This document shows positions 8,852-49,336 of a stretch of 64,000 nucleotides of DNA, in pieces. This DNA is from Heterodontus francisci. Its lineage: Eukaryota. The stretch lies in the NCBI RefSeq assembly GCF_036365525.1, contig NC_090380.1, positions 24,268,406 to 24,332,405 on the forward strand, given 5' to 3'. The first letter of the stretch is position 1. Each line of letters opens with the position of its first letter. The position numbers were made by a program, and so were the translations under genes. Under the pieces are notes generated by a model, which worked only from the letters and a program-made list of their open reading frames with translations, did not search any database and was not told the origin of the DNA.

Positions 8852-8916
8852 CTGCCCGGAGAAGTGCTTTCCTCAGAGCCACTGGCAGCCGCTTTCTTCA
8901 GGGGCTTAGGGGGCAT
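8852..8916 (-). CDS. RB1: Retinoblastoma protein, coding exon 1 (MPPKPLKKAAASGSEESTSPG-R); later exons not found in the window
   Basis: gccATG start, N-terminus MPPK typical of RB1, phase-2 donor AG|GTAAGG as in RB1 exon 1, CpG island, RB1-type promoter motifs, and position downstream of ITM2B as in human. Confidence 0.85.
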
Positions 8917-9056: not shown

Positions 9057-9401
9057 TTAGCACCGCCATGAGCAAAACAACAGGTCAAAGAGGAAGTAAC
9101 TCGTTGCCCAGAGCGGCATCAAACAGTAAGGTTTTACATATATAGATTGCACATACTCTTGTGATAGTTGATTTTTTTTAAATGCAAGCAGTCGGTTTCC
9201 TGTTTGAATGGACATGTTTGAACGGCATCAGTTCCCTAAAGCCAAAGGAGCAGGCAGTGAAAATATTTTCCCCTCTTTGGTCTATCCCATTGGTTGCCAC
9301 ATCATCCAGTGTTTACATTTTAATTGTATCTGTCGATACTGCGAACATTGAAAACTATTGTTGAATACACCGTTGTCACTCAGCGCATCAATTTACATTA
9401 A

Positions 9402-10200
9402 TATAAAAGCAAAATACTGCGGATGCTGGAAATCTGAAATAAAAACAAGAAATGCTGGAACCACTCAGCAGGTCTGGCAGCATCTGTAGAAAGAGAAGCA
9501 GAGTGAACGTTTCGGGTCAGTGACCCTTCATTGGAACTGACAAATATTAGAAAAGTCGCAGGTTATAAGCAAGTGAGGTGGGGGTGGGGCAAGAGATAAC
9601 AAAGGAGGTCTAGATTGGGATAAAAACAAGAAATGCTGGAACCACTCAGCAGGTCTGGCAGCATCTGTGAAAAGAGCAGAGTTAACGTTTCGGGTTAGTG
9701 ACCCTTCTTCGGAACGGGCCAGGCCACATAGCTGACCAAAAGGTCACGGAGCAAAGGCAAACAATATGTTAATGGTGTGTTGAAAGACAAAGCATTAGTA
9801 CAGATTAGGTATAAATACACTGAATATCGAACAGCAGCAAGTGCAAACCTGAAAAAAAAACAGTGGGTAAGCAAACTGAACAAACTAAGATGAAATGAAA
9901 TAAATGTAAAAAAAAAGGGAAGAAAAAATAACTAAAAATGAAAGTAAAATGGGGGGGCTGTCATGCTCTGAAATTATTGAACTCAATGTTCAGTCCGGCA
10001 GGCTGTAGTGTGCCTAATCGGTAGATGAGATGCTGTTCCTCGAGCTTGCGTTGATGTTCACTGGAACACTGCAGCAATCCCAGGACACAGATGTGAGCAT
10101 GAGAGCAGGGGGGGTGTTGAAATGGCAAGCAACTGGAAGCTCAGGGTCCTGCTTGCGGACTGAGCGGAGATGTTCCACAAAGCGGTTACCCAGTCTGCTA
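9402..10200 (-). mobile_element. Penelope-like element 3' fragment (GIY-YIG C-terminus plus two terminal-repeat copies)
   Basis: ORF 10014-10220 RLGNRFVEHLRSVRKQDPELPVACHFN matches the PLE endonuclease C-terminus; terminal repeat at about 9402-9540 and 9620-9715 matches the mini-elements. Confidence 0.8.
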
Positions 10201-11172
10201 TTGTAGGTAAGGTGTTGCATTTTGTCGACTTAACTCAAAGCTCAGTCGTGACAGCGGAACTGAAGTGGTCAGAAGCATATGAATCAAAGACAGCTGGAAA
10301 ACCTCCCATGAAAAACTATTACGGACTTATTATTACAACTAATTCTGAGTGCTTATATAATCAGGAAAATCTACAGATGAAGCATTTGGAAAATAGTGGC
10401 GAAGTGACCGCATTTGCTGATTATAAAAAAAAGTTATGCGCAAAGATTTAGCAGACTCCACGTTGTTGATTTTCCCTATTCTGCTGTGACTTTGAATCTC
10501 ACCATCTGTAGGGGGATCTGTGGCATCCAGCAACAGTAAAGTAAGCAAGTTCATCAGCCAACCAGACTGAAGATTTCTCAGAGACAACAAACCAGGAAGT
10601 AAATGTCAAAAACTATAATTCACTTTTTAATTATTTTATAGAAAGCAAAATGATGATTGGGACATAGACATGAGATTAAGGTAGATGATGAAATATCATA
10701 GACTTCAAAAAAACTTAAACATTGATTTTTGAATGTAATGAGGGAATGACACACTACATTTGCAAAGTTACCTTTTCAGCGCCAGAGAGGTTAACTTAGC
10801 ACCATCCCCGAGAAAGATCCAGAGGATGTTGTTCCATTTAGATGCCAGGAACAGGTTTGTACTGGTAGATGTGTCTTGGATTAGCTCTCATGCTGTGTTT
10901 GGTGGTGCATATTTGTAGATATTTTGTCGTGCAGGTGGGAGAATGCAAAATTGGATTCATTTTTTGTGCTCAATGCTTTAGTGTAAGTGTGTGAGACGGT
11001 GTACAGATCTTCTTAGATGCAAGGATGATTAAGCTTTGTTGGTCAGATTTAAATTTATTTTTCACATTATCTTATCCAGAAAAGCTTGATTTTTTGTGTG
11101 CGTGTGTGGATAAACTGAGCCATAATGCAAACTATACACTATTGCTCGAGTAAGTTTTCATGTTATGGAATA

Positions 11173-11575
11173 ATTTTTTTTATTCTTTCATGGGATGTGG
11201 GCATCACTGGTAAGTCCAGCATATGTTTTCCATCCCTAATTGCTTTTGACAACTGAGTGACTTGCTAGGCCATTTCAGAGGACAGATAAGAGTCAACCAC
11301 ATTGCTGTGGATCCAGAGTCACATGTAAGCCAGACCAGGTAGGAATGGCAGATTTCCTTCTCTAAAAGACAATAGTGAATCAGATGGGTTTTTACAACAA
11401 TCGATGATAGCTTCATGGCACCGTAACTGAAACTAGCTTTCAATTCCAGATTTTTATTAATTGAATTTAAATTCTGTCAGCTGCCATGGTGGGATTTGAA
11501 CCACTGGCCCCAGGATATTAGCCTGGGCCTCTGCATTACTAGTTCAGTGGCATTACCACTACCCCACCATCTCCC
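11173..11575 (-). mobile_element. tRNA-derived SINE inserted in the retrocopy
   Basis: Same family as 1907-2240, in reverse orientation; absent from the source intron. Confidence 0.8.
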
Positions 11576-11933
11576 TATTCTGTAGTATATTCCATTGTTG
11601 GGCTGTAATTTGCAACTCAATCTTATTGTATACTTTTTTTAAAAAAAATTAAAACTAGGGTTGAAGCTGGATTATAATAGTATACTACAGAAGGGCATAA
11701 ACAGGCTGGTGGAATGGGAAGACTCATGGCAAATGAAATTCAATGCAGAAAAGTGAGGGGTGATGCATGTTTTTATTAGGAAGAAAAGGACAGACCATAC
11801 ATGCTAAATAGTACAATTTTAAAATGACAGACCTGGGGATGATTATGCACAAATATTTGAAGGTGGCAGGATAGGTTATCGAAACATATGGGATCCTCAG
11901 CTTTAGAAACAGAGGCGTAGCATACAAAGCAGG

Positions 11934-14900
11934 ACCTCAAAAGTAGTCCGCTCTGGATTGCTCCCAATGCTATGCACAAGTGAGTATAGAAATAGAAAGA
12001 GGAGACAAATGAATGCATGGCTGGAAAGATGGTGCAGGAGGGAGGGCTTTAAATTCCTGGGACATTGGGACCGGCTCTGGGGAAGATGCGATGTGTACAG
12101 GTCCGACTGAGTTGCTTGCAAGATGTTTTGCTAGTGCTGTTGGTAAGGGTTTAAACTAGTTTGGCAGGGGGATGGGGACCAGAGGGTGGACTCAGTTGCG
12201 ACAAAATCAGAAATTAAAATGGAAGGCAGAAAATTAATGGATGAGCCTAGAAGACCAAGGAAACAAAAGTTAGAAAATAAGATTTAGGTAGTGCTCAATG
12301 GTATCTATTTCAATGCAAGGAGTATAGCAAATAAAGCAGATGAGCTGAGGGCACGATGGACACGTGGCAGTATGATATCATAGCTATAGAAATGTGACTT
12401 GAGACACAGAAATGGCAGCTCAATGTTTCTGGGTACAGGGTTGTCACTCGTGATAGGGAGGGGGATAAGAAAGGAGGGGGAGTGGCAATTTTGGTCAAGG
12501 AAGCTATTACAGCTGTGTTGGAAGATTCATCAAATGAGGCCATATAGATTGAACTAAGGAACACAAAAGGGGCAATCACAATCCTGGGAATGTACTATAG
12601 ATCCCCAAACAGGCAAATGGAGATAGAAGAGCAAATATGTAAGCAAATCGAAGTGCAAGAATAATAGGGCAGGATTAGTAGGGGATTTTAACTACACCAA
12701 TATTAACGACAATTGTTTTAATGTGAAAGGAATTGAGGGACAAGAATTCAAGGTGCATTCAGAAGAACTTTTTTGGTCAGTTTATAGCAAGTCTGACAAG
12801 AGAGGGTGCAGTTTTAGGAAATGAAACTGGGCAGCTTCAATGAGTGGCAGCAGGAGAGCATTTTGGTGGTAGTGATCTTAATTCGGTCAGTTTTAACAAT
12901 TATGGAAAAGGACAGAACACTGGAGGTTAAAAGTTCTCAATTGGGGCAAGGTCAATTTTACTAAACTGAGGAGCAATTTCACAAAAGTGGACTGGAAACA
13001 GCTACTTGAAGGTAAATCAGTGTCAGAATAGTGGGAGACATTCAAAGGGGAGATTCAAGGCATTCAGAGTAAACACGCTCCCCCAAAGAAAAAGGGTGAG
13101 AAAAAGAGCCCCCAGACGTCAAGGAGCCTACAGGGTAAGATAAGGCAGAAAAGGAAAGCAGAGAACTTACTACAGAAAGCAGAGAGGAGGAATAGAAAGT
13201 GGAGGGGTGAAATCAAAAAGGAAATTAGGAAAGCAAAGAGAGGGCATGAAATATTGGCAAGCTAAAATCAAGGTGAACCCAAAGATGTTTTATCAATACA
13301 TTGAGTAAGAGGATAACTGAAGAGAGTGTAGGGCCCATAAAAGACCAAAAAGGTAACCTATGTGTACCAAGATTTTGGTATTGTTCTTAATGAATACTTT
13401 GTGTCTGTCTTCACAAAAGAGGGGGACGATGCAGGTATTGTAGTTAAGGAAGAGGGGTGTGAAGTATTGGATTTGATAAACATAGGGAGAGGAAGCATGA
13501 ATGGGATTAGCATCCTTGAAAGTTGATAAATTACCAGGACTAGATGAAATGTACCCCAGGATGTTAAAAGCAGCGAGGGGAAAAAGTGGAAGGTCTGACC
13601 ATCACTTTCCAGTCCTCACTGGATACTGGTGTGGTGCTGGAGGATTTAAAAAGGGAGCGAGGGATAGACCGAAGTAGTGGGCAAATTATTGAATCTATTC
13701 TGAGAGACAGGATGAACTATCACTTAGAAAGGCACAGGTTAATCAAGGATTGTCAGCATGGATTTGTTAAGCAACTTGATTGAATCTTTTGATGTGATCT
13801 ACATGGATTTTAGCAAGGCTTTTGACAAGATCCCACATGGCAGACTGGTGAAAAAAAATAAAATCCCATGGGATCCAGGGAATGCAACAAGGCGAATACA
13901 AAATTGGCTCAGTGGCAGGAAACAAAGGGTAATTGACAAGCTGTTTTAGCGACCGGAGGGCTGTTTCCAGTGGTGTTCCGCAGGGCTCAGTACTGGATCC
14001 CCTGCTTTTTGTGGTATATGTTAATGATTTGGATGTAAATGTAGGGGGCATGATCAAAGAGTTTGCAGATGACAGAAAGATTGGCCATGTGGTAGATAGC
14101 GAGGAGGATAGCTGAAGGCTGCAGGAAAATATTGGTCAAAAGTGCCAAATGGAATTCAACCCAGAGAAGTATGGGTTATGCAGCTGGGGAGGTCAAACAA
14201 GGCAAAGGAATACATAATTAATGGGAAAATACTGAGAAATGTAGAGGAAGTAAGGGACCTTGGCGTGAATATCCACATATCCCCTAAGGTAGCAGGACAG
14301 GTCGATAAGGTGGTTAAGAAGGCATATGGAATCCTTTCCTTTAAAGCCGAGATATAGAATACAAAAGCTGGAACTGTATAACTCATTGGAGAGAGAAGCA
14401 GAGTTAATGTTTCAGGTCAGGGACTCTTCATCAGAAAGTTCTAATGAAGGGTCACTGACTTGAAACCTTAACTCTGCTTCTCTCTCCACAGATGCTGCCA
14501 GACCTAAGTATTTCCAGCATTTGTTTTTATTTCAGATTTCCAGCATCTGCAGTACTTTGCTTTTATATTATATAACTCATTGGTTAGGTCACAGCTTGAG
14601 TACTGTGTGCAGTTCTGGTCCTCATTACAGAAAGGATGGAATTGCACTAGAGAGGGTACAGAGGAGACTTGAGGAAGTTGCCAGGACTGGAAAAATGTAA
14701 CTGAGGAAAGATTGGATAGGCTGGGGTTGTTCTCCTTGGAAGAGACAGCTGAGGGGATTTGAGTGGCCTAGATAGAGCAAAGGTGAAGGGGCTATTCAGC
14801 TTAGCAGAGAGGTCAGTGACTAGGGGGCATAGATTTAAAATGATTGGTAGAAAGATTAGAGGGACGAGGAGGAAAAGTCTTTTCACCCAGAGGGTGCTGC

Positions 14901-15097
14901 CTGAAAGGGTAGTTGAGGCAGAAACCCTCAACTCATTCAAAAGGAGTCTGATATGCACCTTAAGTGCTGTAATCTGCAGGGCTACGGACCAAATGCTTGA
15001 AGGTAGGATTAGAACGGGTGGGTCATTTTTCAGCTGGCACAGACCCATTGGGCCAAGTGGCCTCTTTCTGTGCCTTAAACTTGCTATGATTCTATGA
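11934..15097 (+). mobile_element. Long decayed CR1 LINE (ORF1 end, endonuclease, RT) nested in the retrocopy
   Basis: YMDFSKAFDKIPH, SGVPQGSVLDPLLF..FADD; 3' microsatellite gctatgattctatga at about 15083-15097. Confidence 0.85.
14390..14570. mobile_element. Head-to-head (palindromic) Penelope-derived mini-element with two hammerhead-like cores
   Basis: Inverted arms centred on ttcatcagaaagttctaatgaa; 13-bp TSD tataactcattgg (14377-14389 and 14571-14583). Confidence 0.8.
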
Positions 15098-18000
15098 AAA
15101 GCCAGGAAGTTATGTTAAACCTATATAAAACACTAGTGCAGCCCCAGCTGGAGCATTATATCCAATTCTGGGCACTGCACTTTAGAAAGGACATGAAGGT
15201 TTTGGAGAGATTAGTTATCTGGATAGATAGGAGGAGGTGGTGTTGTTCTGCTTAGAGCAAAGGCAGCCAAGAGGAAATTTGATGAGATGTTTAAAATCAT
15301 GAGTTTGGATAGAGTGAATAAAGAGAAACTGTTTCCAATGCTGATGGGTTGATAACTAGAGGGCTCAGATTTAAGGTGACTGGCAAAGAACCAAGAAAAA
15401 CCTCTATGCATCGAGTGGTTCAAATTTGAAATATACTGTTTGATAGAGTGGTGAATGTAAATTCAATAGCCTTCAAAAGGGAATCTGATAAATATTGAGG
15501 AAACATTTATAGGGGCACAGGGAAGAGCAGGGGAGTGAGACCAGCCAGATTGTTCTTTGAAAGAATTGTTGCAGACTCAATGGGCTGAATGGTCTCCTGT
15601 ACTGTACTATTCTAATACACCATTAAAAATTACAGCTCATTCAACAAGGCTCAACATTTGATAGCTTTTATAGCAAAAATACTGCATAAAGAGTTGAAGT
15701 GCAGGTCAGATCACAGGCACTGACAATTTCATTATAGTTATAACTACAAATTCCAGGCTTTTTTTCCCCCAAAATTCTTTGAGCCACCACAGATCAGGTC
15801 AGTTACCATGCAATTTGTGGAAAATCCACCAATTAAAAAAAATTCAACTTGTTCGAATCTTCCTTCAAAAAACTTTGATTTACTATTTTTCTTAAATGTA
15901 AATGTTATGGGTTCAATAAAGCTAATTCAGATAATAAAATTGTATTGTGTAGTTTTGAGCATTTTCATTAAAGGGCCCAGCCTCCAAAGTCTCAAGTTGA
16001 CACTGTTGCCATAGTGCTTAGTTAAATCTGTTTCATGCAGTATATCTGAGTACATCAGTATGATTCTGTTGTGAACATATCTTTCAGCTACTAACAGTAT
16101 TTATCTGTTTTTCAAACAAGCCTTGATAAAGCTTTGAAATTTAAAAAAATGAAAAACAGTTTTTTTTAAAAATTTCAAATACAGTCTGGATGAGTGAGGT
16201 GGGCATAGACAATCAGGTGTGATGAGCAATTTGCTCCATTTACAGTTGCAATGCAAAACAGTTTGTAAAAAGGATTAAAATTTGGAAATTTTTCGTCAAA
16301 TCTATTTTCCAAAGGCTAAAAACCAAGTCATACTGTAGTATGGTTTCAGTTTCTTCAAATATTTGAAAAGGGGCTACAAGATACATGGTAAATAATTCTG
16401 TAAATGATGGCACCTTGGGCTAATGTGGTTCATGTTCCCATCTTTCTGTAAAAGCCAAGATAAAATTAAACACAAGACAAATATAAATCAAACCAAATTT
16501 GCAGTTTTCACAAATAGAATTCTGGTTTTTGATCCGCAAAACAGTGAAAATCTCAATATCATGTAATGAGCACACAATGTTATTTATTCAGTCACCAGAA
16601 ATCAGTAAAATAAAAACAAAATATGACTGTTCTAATAAAAAGGTCACAGACCTGAAACGTTCATTGTTTCTCTCTCCACAGATGCTGCCAGAGCAGAGTT
16701 TTTATACCAGAAATTAGCAGTCGGTAATGCATTTTGCCAGAACGCCTGTATAAACCTGTGTACCTTCAGACTGATTCACCGTTAAGCAATGCCATGAGAT
16801 CTGCTAGCAATACTATAAAATCTTAAATGTATTCATATTTCCTGTCCATCGCTCCTCAGATGGTCATCACATTTCAGACAGTGATGCAATTTGTCACATT
16901 TAGCCTATTTGTCCTAGTAAAATTAACTTGCCAATACCTGATGTAAATTTGTGTTTGAAATTCAATTTAAATTTCTTCCATCTAATTAGCTAAGCAAATG
17001 CTTTGACTTGGTTTTATTATATAAATTAGGGAAGCCATATACAAATATTTCAGAAATCATTCAAATCTGAAAAAAAATTCCTGCCATTATCATCCCTCAA
17101 TTTACCAATATCTCTTCAAAGGATTTTGAATGTTCTATTTATTCTACCAGATCAAAACCAGAATTCATTGGAGAGGATTCTCTGCTTGGACCCCTGGGCT
17201 TGTTACTTTTACCGAGATATTGGGCAGGTAAAGGCATGTTATAGACAGGTGAAGTATGACAAGGTTGGTTTCCCCTTTCTCACCCCTCAACTGACCAACA
17301 GCGTTTTTTTTTTAAAAGTTTTAACCCGAGTGTTTTAATAGTCAACAGACAAATGACGTTTAAGTTTAAAGATAAATGTTTATTATACAATACCCCAAAA
17401 TATTACACCATTTCACCCACTCTAATATGCATACAGATACACAAGAGGTAGAGATAAAAACGTATGTGTTAGGGTCAGATGGTTAACAGTGCATTCTAAA
17501 ACATGCTTGAAGAAAACTCAAATGTTCAGGACAACAGATGTGTTGTAGTCTTCTCTAGTTATGTTACAGTTCAATTGTGAAAGCCTGCTACAATTTCTCA
17601 GGTTGGGAGATGTTCTGAGGCCAACTCTAGTTTCTGCTTACATGTATTTTTTGATGGAGATTTTAAAGCAGGGTCCTTCTTCACTGGTAACAGATGGAAT
17701 CCTCAATTTTGAACTGAATTAAAACTGAAATTCCAAAATGAATTAAACCAACACTGATTCTGCTCCAATTGTTCCATACTGCACTGCTACTTCACTTGGA
17801 CGCCTCAAGTCTGTTTGGATTTTTTTATATAAACAGTTTTACATTATACAGTTTAAAATCTTTCCTGTGAGACAAGCACATTCTGGATCGTGGGGCCTTA
17901 TGGCACATTTGTAGCACTGAATAGAAAGAAAAAGGTGCATAAAACTCAAATATAACACTTCATTCTAATTTGGTTCGGCCTTTCCTTGTTTGCAATGGTC

Positions 18001-37890: not shown

Positions 37891-38974
37891 AAGCCAGTGG
37901 TTGCAGCAGAGAAGGAGACCATTTTACGATATTATGCTGCCAACTTTGAATTTCGGATCTATAAATCAGAAAATGCGGCCAAAGATACAGCAATCAGCTG
38001 GAAACCTTTGAGGAAGTGTTAATTTGATGTGACATCATGGTCGACCATAAAAATGCTGTTTAATGCTGCTCTGAATAGCGGGAAACCCTTTATGCGAACT
38101 TCTAAGTGTTATTCCTTACTTCTCCCTTTCTCGGATGGCAGAGATTCTCACTGAGGCATAGCTCCTTCACATAAGAGACCAAGGGATTTTTCACATGGTA
38201 AAGTCTTGGAATAACTTCATCCTTGCACTACAAATTTAAAATTCCAGCTCAAGTTTTTTTTTAAAAACCTTCATATTTTGTTTTTAAAAAGTAGCAGTGC
38301 ATAAATTTGTACTTTCCTTTGGAGAATACTAACATTTTATGTTAAAGGCTTTGAGGAATGGGACATGACGCTTTGTCTTAAATTGTGTCAACAATCCAAA
38401 GCAAAAGTTTATAAACATATATTCCACATACAAAAAAAAATATTGTATTTTAAGGCTCCCAGTGGTAAAGTGAATGTGTAACTAAGCCATTTGGAACAGG
38501 AGGTCTCAGATTCAATACCAAGGTTTGACTTGGCTGTACCAATTTAGGAGATCTGCAATCAAATGGAAATAAGGGTGCAACAATTCATCTCAGCTAGGTG
38601 CAGGTGGGAAAAAGGCAGTCAGCTGGGCTACTGCCTGCTATAAAGTGCAAGTAGGTATCAGGCAAGAACAGGATCAAGCTTGTTTGAAACATTGCTAAAT
38701 AGCCCAATTATGTCTCGGTTCAGCAGCATAGAAGGGAATGGGAATTGCACCTCAGCAGGAGTCTGATACCTTCAGGAGAAATTGGCAAAAACAGTTCTAC
38801 GTAGTGTTCACATTTCTTCTGATATAGTGCAAGAAGTGCACGAACAATTCAACAAAACATTACTATAAATTGAACATTTTTAAAAACTGGAGAACAGCAG
38901 GATCTAATTTTTGCCCTCAGACAATTCAGGTGGTACTTATGATTCTATGACTGTGGCTACCAGTCACAACAGTA

Positions 38975-39678
38975 CAGTACCATTCAGCCTATCGAGTCTG
39001 CAACAACTCTTTCAAAAGGAGCAATCCAGTTAGTCCCACTCCCCTGCTCTTTCCCTATACCCCTGTAAATTTTTCAACCAAGTATTTATCCAATTCCCTT
39101 TTGAAGGCTACTATTGAATCTGCATCCACCACCCTATCAGGCAGTGCATTCCAAATCTTAACCACTCGTTGCATTAAAGTTTTTCCTCATGTCACCTCTT
39201 GGTTCTTTGCCAGTCACCTTAAAGCTGTGCCCTCCAGTTATTGACCCTTTAGCCATTGGAAACAATCTCTATGAACACTATCCAAACCCTTCATGATTTT
39301 AAACACCTGTCAAATCTTCTAATATTCTTTGCTCCAAGGAGAACAACCCTAGCTTCTCCACATAACTAATCCCTCATCCCTGAACCATGCTAACAAATTT
39401 ATTCTGTAATCTCTCCAAAGCCTTCACATCCTTGTTAAACTGTCGTCCAGAATTTATATTTATAAAGCGCAGGATCCCATATGCTTTATTAACCTGTCCT
39501 GCCACCTACAAACATTTGTGCACAAACAGCCACACGTCTCCTCTTACCCGCACTTGAAAATTGTACCAGTTTGTATTACCTCTCCTCATTCCTCTTTACA
39601 AAATGTATCACCTCACTTTTCTGCATTGAATTTAATTTGCCATGTGCCTGCCCATTCCAGCCTGTCTATGCCCTCCTA
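38975..39678 (-). mobile_element. CR1 3' fragment in ITM2B intron 2, sense to the gene; proposed priming element of the retrocopy
   Basis: CR1 RT-end and 3'UTR sequence on the minus strand; shares its 5' junction and 3' motif ttgttgcagactc with the retrocopy. Confidence 0.8.
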
Positions 39679-39730
39679 AAGTTTACCTCTATTACCCCAT
39701 TTCAATCCAAGTTTTTTTTCAAAAAAGTAT

Positions 39731-41787
39731 TCTTCTTTTCTTTTTCTTTTGGGCCTCCTTATCTCGAGAGACAATGGATACGCGCCTGGAGGTGGTCAGT
39801 GGTTTGTGAAGCAGCGCCTGGAGTGGCTATAAAGGCCAATTCTGGAGTAACAGGCTCTTCCACAGGTGCTGCAGAGAAATTTGTTTGTTGGGGCTGTTGC
39901 ACAGTTGGCTCTCCCCTTGCGCCTGTCTTTTTTCCTGCCAACTACTAAGTCTCTTCGACTCGCCACAATTTAGCCCTGTCTTTATGGCTGCCCGCCAGCT
40001 CTGGCGAATGCTGGCAACTGACTCCCACGACTTGTGATCAATGTCACACGATTTCATGTCGCGTTTGCAGACGTCTTTATAACGGAGACATGGACGGCCG
40101 GTGGGTCTGATACCAGTGGCGAGCTCGCTGTACAATGTGTCTTTGGGGATCCTGCCATCTTCCATGCGGCTCACATGGCCAAGCCATCTCAAGCGCCGCT
40201 GACTCAGTAGTGTGTATAAGCTGGGGGTGTTGGCCGCTTCAAGGACTTCTGTGTTGGAGATATAGTCCTGCCACCTGATGCCAAGTATTCTCCGAAGGCA
40301 GCGAAGATGGAATGAATTGAGACGTCGCTCTTGGCTGGCATACGTTGTCCAGGCCTCGCTGCCGTAGAGCAAGGTACTGAGGACACAGGCCTGATACACT
40401 TGGACTTGTGTTCCGTGTCAGTGCGCCATTTTCCCACACTCTCTTGGCCAGTCTGGACATAGCAGTGGAAGCCTTACCCATGCGCTTGTTGATTTCTGCA
40501 TCGAGAGACAGGTTACTGGTGATAGTTGAGCCTAGGTAGGTGAACTCTTGAACCACTTCCAGAGCGTGGTCGCCAATATTGATGGATGGAGCATTTCTGA
40601 CATCCTGCCCCATGATGTTCGTTTTCTTGAGGCTGATGGTTAGGCCAAATTCATTGCAGGCAGACGCAAACCTGTCGATGAGACTCTGCAGGCATTCTTC
40701 AGTGTGAGATGTTAAAGCAGCATCGTCAGCAAAGAGGAGTTCTCTGATGAGGACTTTCCGTACTTTGGACTTCGCTCTTAGACGGGCAAGGTTGAACAAC
40801 CTGCCCCCTGATCTTGTGTGGAGGAAAATTCCTTCTTCAGAGGATTTGAACGCATGTGAAAGCAGCAGGGAGAAGAAAATCCCAAAAAGTGTGGGTGCGA
40901 GAACACAGCCCTGTTTCACACCACTCAGGATAGGAAAGGGCTCTGATGAGGAGCCACCATGTTGAATTGTGCCTTTCATATTGTCATGGAATGAGGTGAT
41001 GATACTTAGTAGCTTTGGTGGACATCCGATCTTTTCTAGTAGTCTGAAGAGACCACGTCTGCTGACGAGGTCAAAGGCTTTGGTGAGATCAATGAAAGCA
41101 ATGTAGAGGGGCATCTGTTGTTCACGGCATTTCTCCTGTATCTGACGAAGGGAGAACAGCATGTCAATAGTCGATCTCTCTGCACGAAAGCCACACTGTG
41201 CCTCAGGGTAGACGCGCTCGGCCAGCTTCTGGAGCCTGTTCAGAGCGACTCGAGCAAAGACTTTCCCCACTATGCTGAGCAGGGAGATTCCACGGTAGTT
41301 GTTGCAGTCACCGCGGTCACCTTTGTTTTTATAGAGGGTGATGATGTTGGCATCGCGCATGTCCTGGGGTACTGCTCCCTCGTCCCAGCACAGGCATAGC
41401 AGTTCATGTAGTGCTGAGAGTATAGCAGGCTTGGCACTCTTGATTATTTCAGGGGTAATGCTGTCCTTCCCAGGGGCTTTTCCGCTGGCTAGGGAATCAA
41501 TGGCATCACTGAGTTCCGATTTGGTTGGCTGTATGTCCAGCTCATCCATGACTGGTAGAGGCTGGGCTGCATTGAGGGCAGTCTCAGTGACAGCATTCTC
41601 CCTGGAGTACAGTTCTAGGTAGTGCTCAACCCAGCGGTCCATCTGTTTGCGTTGGTCAGTGATTATGTCCCCCGATTTAGATTTGAGGGGGGTGATCTTC
41701 TTGATGGTTGGCCCAAGAGCTCTCTTCATGCCATCATACATTCCTCTGATGTTTCCGGTGTCTGAGGCCAGCTGAATATGACTGCAT
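39731..41787 (-). mobile_element. Young 5'-truncated RTE-clade LINE with 52-bp TSD
   Basis: 500-aa ORF with RT (NYRGISLLS, QCGFR, FIDLTKAFD, GVKQGC, LLFADD); two frameshifts lead to LLYGSEAW and the C-terminal motif CSTCGRACYSRIGLYSHSRRC; (AAAAG)n-like tail; identical 52-bp flanks 39679-39730 and 41788-41839. Confidence 0.95.
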
Positions 41788-42132
41788 AAGTTTACCTCTA
41801 TTACCCCATTTCAATCCAAGTTTTTTTTCAAAAAAGTATACATTAAGATTAAGTTGCAAATTTCAGCCCAACAATGAAATGTACTACACAAGTATTGCAT
41901 AACATGAAAACTTACTCTTGAGCAATAGTGCAGTTTATGTTATGGTTCAGTTTATCCACACAAAGAAATTAAGCTTTGCTGGACAAGTTAGTGCACAAAA
42001 TTAATTTAAATCTGACTAAGGATGCCTTGTCATCCTTGCATCTAAGAACATCTGCACTCCATCACACATTTAATCTTAACTGTCAAAGCATAAGATCAGG
42101 TTTAAAAAAAATCCAATTTGGCAGTCTCCTAC

Positions 42133-42261
42133 CTGCAAGATAAAGTACCTGTACAGATATGCACCACCAACCACCACACCAGACAGCATAAGCGCTAGTC
42201 CAAGACACATGCACCAGCACCAGACACGCGACTGGCGTCTAAATGGAACATCCTCTGGATC
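42133..42261 (-). CDS. ITM2B: ITM2B exon 2 (DPEDVPFRRQSRVWCWCMCLGLALMLSGVVVGGAYLYRYFILQ), transmembrane segment
   Basis: 129 nt, AG/GT boundaries, WCWCMC..GGAYLY motif of BRI2. Confidence 0.95.
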
Positions 42262-48702: not shown

Positions 48703-48789
48703 CTTCTCGGGGATAATGAGCGCCTCGTTGTTCTCATCCTTCTTGGGCTCCTTCTGACTCAGGGACGAGTTAAATGATACTTTCACCAT
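48703..48789 (-). CDS. ITM2B: ITM2B coding exon 1 (MVKVSFNSSLSQKEPKKDENNEALIIPEK)
   Basis: Kozak ccaccATGG; matches the BRI2 N-terminus MVKV.FNS.L.QKE.KKDE..EALIIP; donor AAG|GTGCGT. Six exons total 777 nt, i.e. 258 aa plus stop. Confidence 0.95.
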
Positions 48790-48887: not shown

Positions 48888-48921
48888 TCCCAAACAACAT
48901 GAACTCCCTCCCAGCTCATAT

Positions 48922-49295
48922 CGCCCCTCTCCCTCGCCCCGCCCCCTTTCCCTCGCCCCCGCCCCCTTTCCCTCTCCCTCTCCCTCTCCCCCGCCCCCTT
49001 TCCCTCTCCCTCTCCCCCGCCCCCTTTCCCTCGCCCCGCCCCGCCCCGCCCCCTTTCCCTCGCCCCGCCCCGCCCCCTTTCCCCCGCCCCGCCCCGCTTC
49101 CCTCGCCCCGCCCCCTCTCCCCGCCCCCTTTCCCCCGCCCCGCCCCGCTTCCCTCGCCCCGCCCCTCTCCCTCGCCCCCGCCCCCTTTCCCCCGCCTCGC
49201 CCCCGCCCCCTTTCCCCCGCACCGCCCCCGCCCCGCACCGCCCCCTTTCCCTCGCCCCGCCCCCGCCCCTTTCCCTCACCCTCTCCCTCTCCCCT
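48922..49295. repeat. GC-box minisatellite (unit about CCCCGCCCCCTTTCCCTCG) in the ITM2B promoter
   Basis: Irregular tandem repeats of ccccgcccc with tttccc/ctcg spacers; almost A-free on the plus strand. Confidence 0.9.
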
Positions 49296-49336
49296 GCGCC
49301 TCGCCTGGCAATCTGTCGCCCTGCCTCAACACCAGA

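Follow-up and report, generated by a model that had tools for sequence, protein, structure and literature searches.

ITM2B and an inserted copy of its RNA

The stretch analysed here (the window) comprises 64 kb of the Heterodontus francisci genome (6.0 Gb), at positions 24268406-24332405 of contig NC_090380.1, referred to below as C10. It contains the gene ITM2B on the minus strand and, 23-31 kb from its source and in inverted orientation, an insertion that carries parts of the same gene. ITM2B was identified by a Pfam BRICHOS domain and a PDB match to ITM2B (E 1.9e-18). Its exon 1 (48703-48789) and exon 2 (42133-42261) are separated by an intron 1 of 6,441 nt, and the remaining exons lie around 35.2, 34.7, 27.1, and 24.9 kb. 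A fragment of CR1, a long interspersed element (LINE), sits in intron 2 and is the source of two RNA-derived copies, namely the retrocopy in the window (C10 copy) and a second one on contig C15 (C15 copy). This RNA-derived duplication, with two events from one source element, is real and well supported. The features of the parent gene are the following.

48703..48789, minus strand: coding part of parent ITM2B exon 1
42133..42261, minus strand: parent ITM2B exon 2, with the BRICHOS and PDB ITM2B matches
41788..42132, minus strand: unique 5' part of parent intron 2, the origin of the transduced sequence, matched at three genome loci
39731..41787, minus strand: young LINE in parent intron 2 with a perfect 52-nt target-site duplication (TSD), missing from both copies
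38960..39690, minus strand: source element, a 5'-truncated CR1 fragment in intron 2, sense to ITM2B

The young LINE, which we take to be of the RTE type, as did the initial annotation of this stretch, spans 39679-41839 when its TSD is included and has a frameshifted reverse transcriptase (RT) frame of 523 aa (Pfam RVT_1). Its TSD is unusually long and crosses the junction between the intron and the source element. Immediately upstream of ITM2B exon 1 lies a G-rich tract of GGGGC-type repeats (48921-49305).

The C10 copy and its surroundings are built up as follows.

10440..10805, plus strand: left half of an interrupted multicopy host repeat (1,792 genome candidates; many matches stop at 10792)
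10800..10805, plus strand: left TSD, CACCAT, whose last 2 nt also match exon 1
10806..10815, plus strand: exon 1 stub, the last 10 nt of ITM2B exon 1 and the 5'-truncated end of the retrocopy (9/10 match)
10816..10934, plus strand: decayed exon 2 copy fused to the stub (p-distance 0.164 to 42133-42261)
10935..11172, plus strand: first part of the retained intron 2, from the donor GT (p-distance 0.159 to the parent)
11173..11580, minus strand: later nested repeat, not in the parent, with a tRNA-like head judged by eye; presumably a short interspersed element (SINE)
11581..11679, plus strand: second part of the retained intron 2, ending where the CR1 begins (90% identity to 41891-41821 across 71 nt)
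11680..11934, plus strand: 5' part of the copied intronic CR1, by alignment to the parent
11935..15107, plus strand: later nested long CR1 with a ATTCTATG tail and a TSD of about 10 nt (15098-15107)
15108..15617, plus strand: remainder (3' part) of the copied intronic CR1, which bears the private haplotype and ends in the tail, without poly(A)
15618..15623, plus strand: right TSD, CACCAT
15618..15760, plus strand: host repeat, right half, which continues in register (5/7 paralogues by BLAST)

The segment 10806-15617 is a LINE-type, RNA-derived insertion. The 10 nt that follow the left TSD match the end of ITM2B exon 1 at 9/10 positions and the end of intron 1 at 1/10, and an exon 1 match of at least 9/10 occurs in just 5 of the 127,982 10-mers of the window, both real sites counted. 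For the slightly longer segment 10804-10815 proposed in the initial annotation, the values are 11/12 and 2/12, as that annotation had held for exon 1. Since these bases fit the end of exon 1 and not that of intron 1, the template had intron 1 spliced out; the stub is joined exactly to the exon 2 copy, so that all 6,441 nt are precisely missing. Intron 2 is retained, because the exon 2 copy (10816-10934), the donor, and the adjoining intron align to 42261-41821. When the nested inserts and the young LINE of the parent were removed, the alignment, starting in exon 2, ran unbroken across about 450 nt of intron 2 and on as far as the tail of the CR1. There the similarity ends, the downstream part of intron 2 aligning no better than chance (171/200 shuffles score as high). 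These structural claims of the initial annotation were thus borne out; its right boundary stood as well, and its left one (10804) moved to 10806, as the AT at 10804-10805, which it had counted as exon 1, is common to the TSD and exon 1 (microhomology). The nested CR1 is indeed a later insert, its start being corrected from 11934 to 11935 (to 15097). One intron precisely lost and another kept is the pattern of a semi-processed pseudogene, and an intact 3' end together with a truncated, microhomologous 5' end is that of target-primed reverse transcription (TPRT). The poly(A) tail of a semi-processed pseudogene is missing, the tail passing straight into the TSD.

The CACCAT at both ends (10800-10805 and 15618-15623) had been proposed as a TSD, and this was settled by paralogous empty sites. 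Seven paralogues of the interrupted host repeat were fetched and aligned, five of which also match the right flank by BLAST. They carry CACCAT once, exactly in 2/7 and with 1-3 differences in the others, and it is therefore a real TSD. Because the paralogues are continuous across the site, the insert split one element and duplicated 6 nt (8 if two left bases were lost later). The alternative that CACCAT merely derives from the exon was ruled out by its single occurrence in the paralogues (exon 1 reads CATTAT there). The host repeat itself (10440-10805 plus 15618-15760) is an old dispersed repeat with 1,792 candidates in the genome.

It is very improbable that the C10 copy arose by a local inverted duplication of DNA that afterwards lost intron 1 through cDNA conversion. 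The proximity of 23-31 kb, the inverted orientation, and a single weak score of the upstream flank against the end of intron 1 (reached in 7/200 shuffles) would suit such an origin, and it is contradicted by the TSD within an otherwise continuous host repeat, by an exon 1 stub of just 10 nt, by an end exactly at the tail, and by the second copy on another contig, around which no other ITM2B or RB1 piece was found within 20 kb. The weak upstream score is put down to chance, as the left flank is a dispersed multicopy repeat that resumes after the insert; run-on into intron 1, which would have spoken against the initial annotation, is thus not seen.

Four of 24 sequencing runs (X5, X13, X16, and X18) were compared with the locus. 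Run X5 comes from a relative with about 97-98% identity. Its contigs span both the 5' and the 3' end of the insert as well as the junction of the nested CR1, and the C10 insert is therefore older than the split from that relative. No empty-site joint was found among the 15 listed of about 2,900 joints, and among the matches listed for X13, X16, and X18 there were short repeat pieces alone.

Two copies of one intronic CR1

A DNA search of the genome with exon 2 and intron 2 delivered a third locus, at C15:53267170 onward. It contains, in this order, unique intron 2 sequence, a nested CR1 of its own, and the CR1 fragment beginning at the parent's 5' edge, and it ends in a CR1 tail of about three degenerate microsatellite units without poly(A). 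It begins with nucleotide +1 or +2 of intron 2, a G being common to the target. The copy interrupts another common repeat, which resumes in register within about 3 nt. Two separate retrocopying events from one source element thus took place. Like the C10 copy, it was later struck by a CR1-type insertion (L003 1638-1992). Descent of the C15 host repeat from the copy of that repeat in intron 1 was considered and rejected, since the two are 70-76% identical, which is no more than for other copies of the repeat. No fourth locus came from DNA searches that started with the parent and with the C15 copy; a protein search with exon 2 returned the parent and nothing more than one ITM2 paralogue exon (C11:44882064-44882162, 33% identity to ITM2B exon 2); and a search with an intron motif gave 11 matches compared with 12 in the control, 0/8 new loci being real. 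Each of these results is a lower bound. Three loci, likewise a lower bound, do not make the many copies with their own promoter of a SINE family.

Sequence comparison indicates that both copies descend from the intronic CR1 of ITM2B. A private 23-nt CR1 haplotype has exactly three occurrences genome-wide, namely in the parent, the C10 copy, and the C15 copy, and is seen in 0/29 members of the CR1 family (29 other loci, from 40 scored of 11,843 candidates). As the motif was picked because it is common to all three, it tests for further carriers and not for their own match; allowing one mismatch added two loci, neither with the ITM2B intron. For shared derived states among 496 pairs, parent-C10 ranks first and C10-C15 second, and derived states common to all three occupy 6/439 columns, against at most 3.5 per 400 columns in a background of 1,500 random triples. 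In each of the three sequences, 44-51 further columns differ from the family majority. Few joint and many separate derived columns imply that rather little time passed between the arrival of the CR1 and the making of both copies. The expectation that the CR1 pieces of the C10 copy group with the intronic element was upheld, parent+C10 being the only starred branch of the tree (98/97). The source element can thus be identified and carries the same upstream flank, as is characteristic of 5' transduction.

The branching order bears on the possibility that the C15 copy is a secondary copy, made by the same chemistry from RNA of the C10 copy. Such RNA could come from a divergent promoter of RB1, whose probable first exon lies nearby.

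8852..8916, minus strand: probable RB1 exon 1 in a CpG island, start at 8916; the link to the RB1 gene is deduced

The C10 copy is head-to-head with this start and its CpG island, 1.9 kb upstream, and promoter and copy are linked by a contig of run X5, which may be an RNA run; divergent transcription is possible. Exclusive shared states number 7 for parent+C10, 6 for C10+C15, and 0 for parent+C15. The last two values speak for a secondary copy, and the first, along with the tree (98/97), speaks against it. Pairwise distances among the three range from 0.159 to 0.176 for the intron and from 0.164 to 0.167 for the CR1, and the C10-C15 pair has the largest intron distance (0.176), which likewise speaks against a secondary copy. 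This order of events, which would be compatible with the mechanism proposed below, is held to be unlikely.

Proposed priming at the CR1 tail

Both copies stop at the CR1 microsatellite without poly(A), and both end in degenerate ATTCTRTG-type units that are in register with the tails of the family, as expected of RNAs mobilised by CR1. The CR1 reverse transcriptase is held to recognise a 3' hairpin together with the ATTCTRTG microsatellite (PMC5729268, PMC8665684), and for SART1Bm, a LINE that recognises its 3' untranslated region (UTR), action in trans has been described, along with the ability to start internally on read-through RNA (PMC7265360). In the parent, neither AATAAA nor ATTAAA was found in the roughly 430 nt before the tail or in the 460 nt that follow it, and the genome search gave no copy of ITM2B exon 6 or its 3' UTR.

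We propose, with a probability of roughly 0.78, that the ORF2 protein of a CR1 primed in trans at the intronic tail on an intron-containing ITM2B RNA, which amounts to a 5' transduction. A 5'-truncated CR1 would first have landed in ITM2B intron 2 in sense orientation, about 450 nt below exon 2, so that the hairpin and microsatellite of a CR1 3' end were part of each ITM2B pre-mRNA. At a time when the family had not yet fallen silent, the ORF2 protein of another element would have bound this tail in trans, most likely internally and on nuclear, intron-containing RNA. After nicking of the target, reverse transcription would have run from the tail back through intron 2. For the C10 copy, the template would have lost intron 1 by splicing and still contained intron 2; synthesis would have stopped 10 nt into exon 1, and joining by a 2-nt microhomology would have left the TSD of 6-8 nt. 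For the C15 copy, synthesis would have stopped at the first base of intron 2. The spliced exon 1/2 junction points to transcription from a host promoter upstream of the source element. CR1 activity went on after the insertion, as seen from the CR1 nested inside the copy.

Compared with the initial annotation, which had assumed 5' transduction of a partly spliced pre-mRNA by CR1, the structure is well founded and the part played by a CR1 enzyme instead of L1 is something we infer. Its assumption of a transcript that ends in the CR1 is not required, since the RNA need not end there; priming within a longer RNA is the better fit, and the surroundings of the tail are devoid of a poly(A) signal. 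It had also read the copy as preserving a splicing intermediate. Intron 1 is out and intron 2 is in, as it said; a single molecule gives no general order of splicing, and an isoform that retains intron 2 is possible.

Several observations weigh against our proposal. Parent-C15 ranks 49th of the 496 pairs for shared derived states, 4 of the 6 columns derived in all three form one indel cluster, and the free tree puts C15 outside the parent+C10 clade; a constrained tree with all three in one clade is compatible with the data (p-AU, approximately unbiased test, 0.55; log-likelihood 1.5 higher). In the C15 copy, about 25 nt at the edge between intron and CR1 align poorly, and alignment of the flanks gave no clear TSD. 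The hairpin is non-significant in the three old tails (z -0.85, +0.45, and +0.37), the C10 tail folding the hairpin of the nested CR1 at z -0.85; the younger nested CR1 itself folds a 3' hairpin at z -2.49. As the copies are 16-18% diverged, a short poly(A) could have eroded, and the enzyme leaves no signature except the 3' end. Finally, local landing is not predicted by ordinary TPRT and would have a chance of about 1e-5 if random.

An enzyme of the L1/Tx1 or RTE type might instead have copied an isoform whose poly(A) site lay in intron 2, close to the end of the CR1, or might have been primed internally as in the tailless class of retrocopies. There are precedents in the TMF1 insertion, which ends at an intronic poly(A) signal (PMC4151081), and in tailless retropseudogenes that arise from nuclear RNAs (PMC5322556); a TSD of 6-8 nt also suits L1, and a young RT-encoding LINE of another type sits in the same intron. 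We consider this explanation improbable, as both the poly(A) and a nearby signal are missing, 2/2 copies end at the CR1 microsatellite and not at an A-rich sequence, no copy from the true 3' UTR was found, and a polyadenylated isoform would not begin at the intron 2 donor. A search for the L1 ORF1 family had no match in the genome or in the controls and bears on neither side.

A CR1 enzyme could also have started on its own master RNA and then switched by homology onto the intronic CR1 in ITM2B RNA. Such switching has been proposed for CR1-mobilised chimeras (PMC5729268), and in the C15 copy strong private markers end about 250 nt before the tail, the shared states beyond that point being weak. 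The C10 copy, on the other hand, has parent-private states into its last 100 nt (columns 901-994), which leaves almost no space for master-derived sequence, and each of the two events would require its own switch. There is little probability in such a course.

Two features of the nested long CR1 may be added: it is a CR1 inside a CR1, in equal orientation and with a TSD of about 10 nt, and it holds a small repeat at about 14387-14570. An L2-like label, and the CR1 clade call in so far as it goes beyond the tail motif, are our presumption.

Landing sites, known systems, and the RB1 neighbourhood

The initial annotation had correctly placed the insertion in the region neighbouring ITM2B and left the local landing unquestioned, which needs explaining. 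A 64-kb window favours local cases; selection of this kind alone would require about 1e5 such chimeras genome-wide, which, if so, would be a finding in itself. The start of the C15 copy at the donor has a chance of about 1% (0.3-2.4%, depending on the allowed window) and is one post hoc case. It resembles the start of an excised intron; a longer join from which a few bases were lost later is also possible. If the copy came from an excised intron, the RNA was transcribed beyond the tail to the next acceptor. Taken together, the local landing of the C10 copy and the donor start of the C15 copy suggest a tentative reading, in which the tails of sense intronic CR1s are internal landing pads for CR1 RT on nuclear RNAs, however far their splicing has advanced, and the destination depends on that stage. 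A nascent pre-mRNA tethered to chromatin, with intron 1 out and intron 2 in, may have been inserted locally, here in the RB1 promoter region, and a released intron 2, with the donor G as its 5' end, may have been inserted on another chromosome. If this doubtful reading is true, CR1-rich genomes hold overlooked intron-bearing and intron-only retrocopies that record splicing intermediates.

Several known systems resemble the one proposed here. In the 5' transduction by SVA and L1 (PMC12593883), transcription likewise starts at a host promoter upstream of the source element, upstream sequence with exons is found inside TSDs, and one source has several offspring. Unlike in those cases, the source is here a truncated CR1 fragment with a microsatellite end and not a poly(A) element, and, unlike the splicing into the element described for SVA_F1/MAST2, a contiguous intron is kept and priming appears internal. 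The semi-processed pseudogenes TMF1 in CYBB and mouse preproinsulin I (PMC4151081) have lost some introns and kept others; the 3' end of TMF1 lies within an intron as well, and a TSD is a general feature of the class. The ITM2B copies differ from them in that a poly(A) signal and tail are missing, the CR1 tail sets the 3' end, one copy is local, and the C15 copy is devoid of any exon. A CR1-derived tail also mobilises non-CR1 RNA in trans in the SINEs TguSINE1 and PittSINE and in HE1/HER1 of sharks and rays (PMC5729268, PMC3747384), the head here being a Pol II pre-mRNA and not a tRNA, without an internal promoter and with two offspring found. For tailless retropseudogenes (PMC5322556), which lack poly(A) too, internal priming and nuclear RNA templates have been proposed; these are driven by L1 with A-rich loops and target complementarity, whereas both ITM2B copies end at a LINE-specific tail. 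No description of host exons carried along by 5' transduction through CR1, or of retrocopies made up of an intron alone, came up in a narrow open-access full-text literature search.

The fact that CR1 recognises its own 3' end has been said to restrict which host RNAs can be retrocopied (PMC5470649). The locus described here represents a loophole, as that very specificity makes a sense intronic tail a handle for upstream host exons and introns, and it thus opens a route to gene-fragment duplication via retrotransposons of a class that had been considered incapable of copying host RNAs. Copies of this kind lack poly(A), have introns, and end like a plain CR1, and would therefore be missed by retrocopy surveys based on intron loss. 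Two genome-wide predictions follow. The 5' ends of copies should be overrepresented at splice donors, and exon-bearing copies should be overrepresented in the vicinity of their source; both predictions concern the cellular site at which an enzyme of the CR1 clade encounters its template.

As to the RB1 neighbourhood, the strand of the probable RB1 exon 1 carries, 84 kb further on, an RB_A exon whose best PDB matches are RB1. A cluster of small repeats upstream of that exon (9400-10197) is skipped by the contig of the X5 relative; these repeats beside the promoter are recent, lineage-specific insertions.

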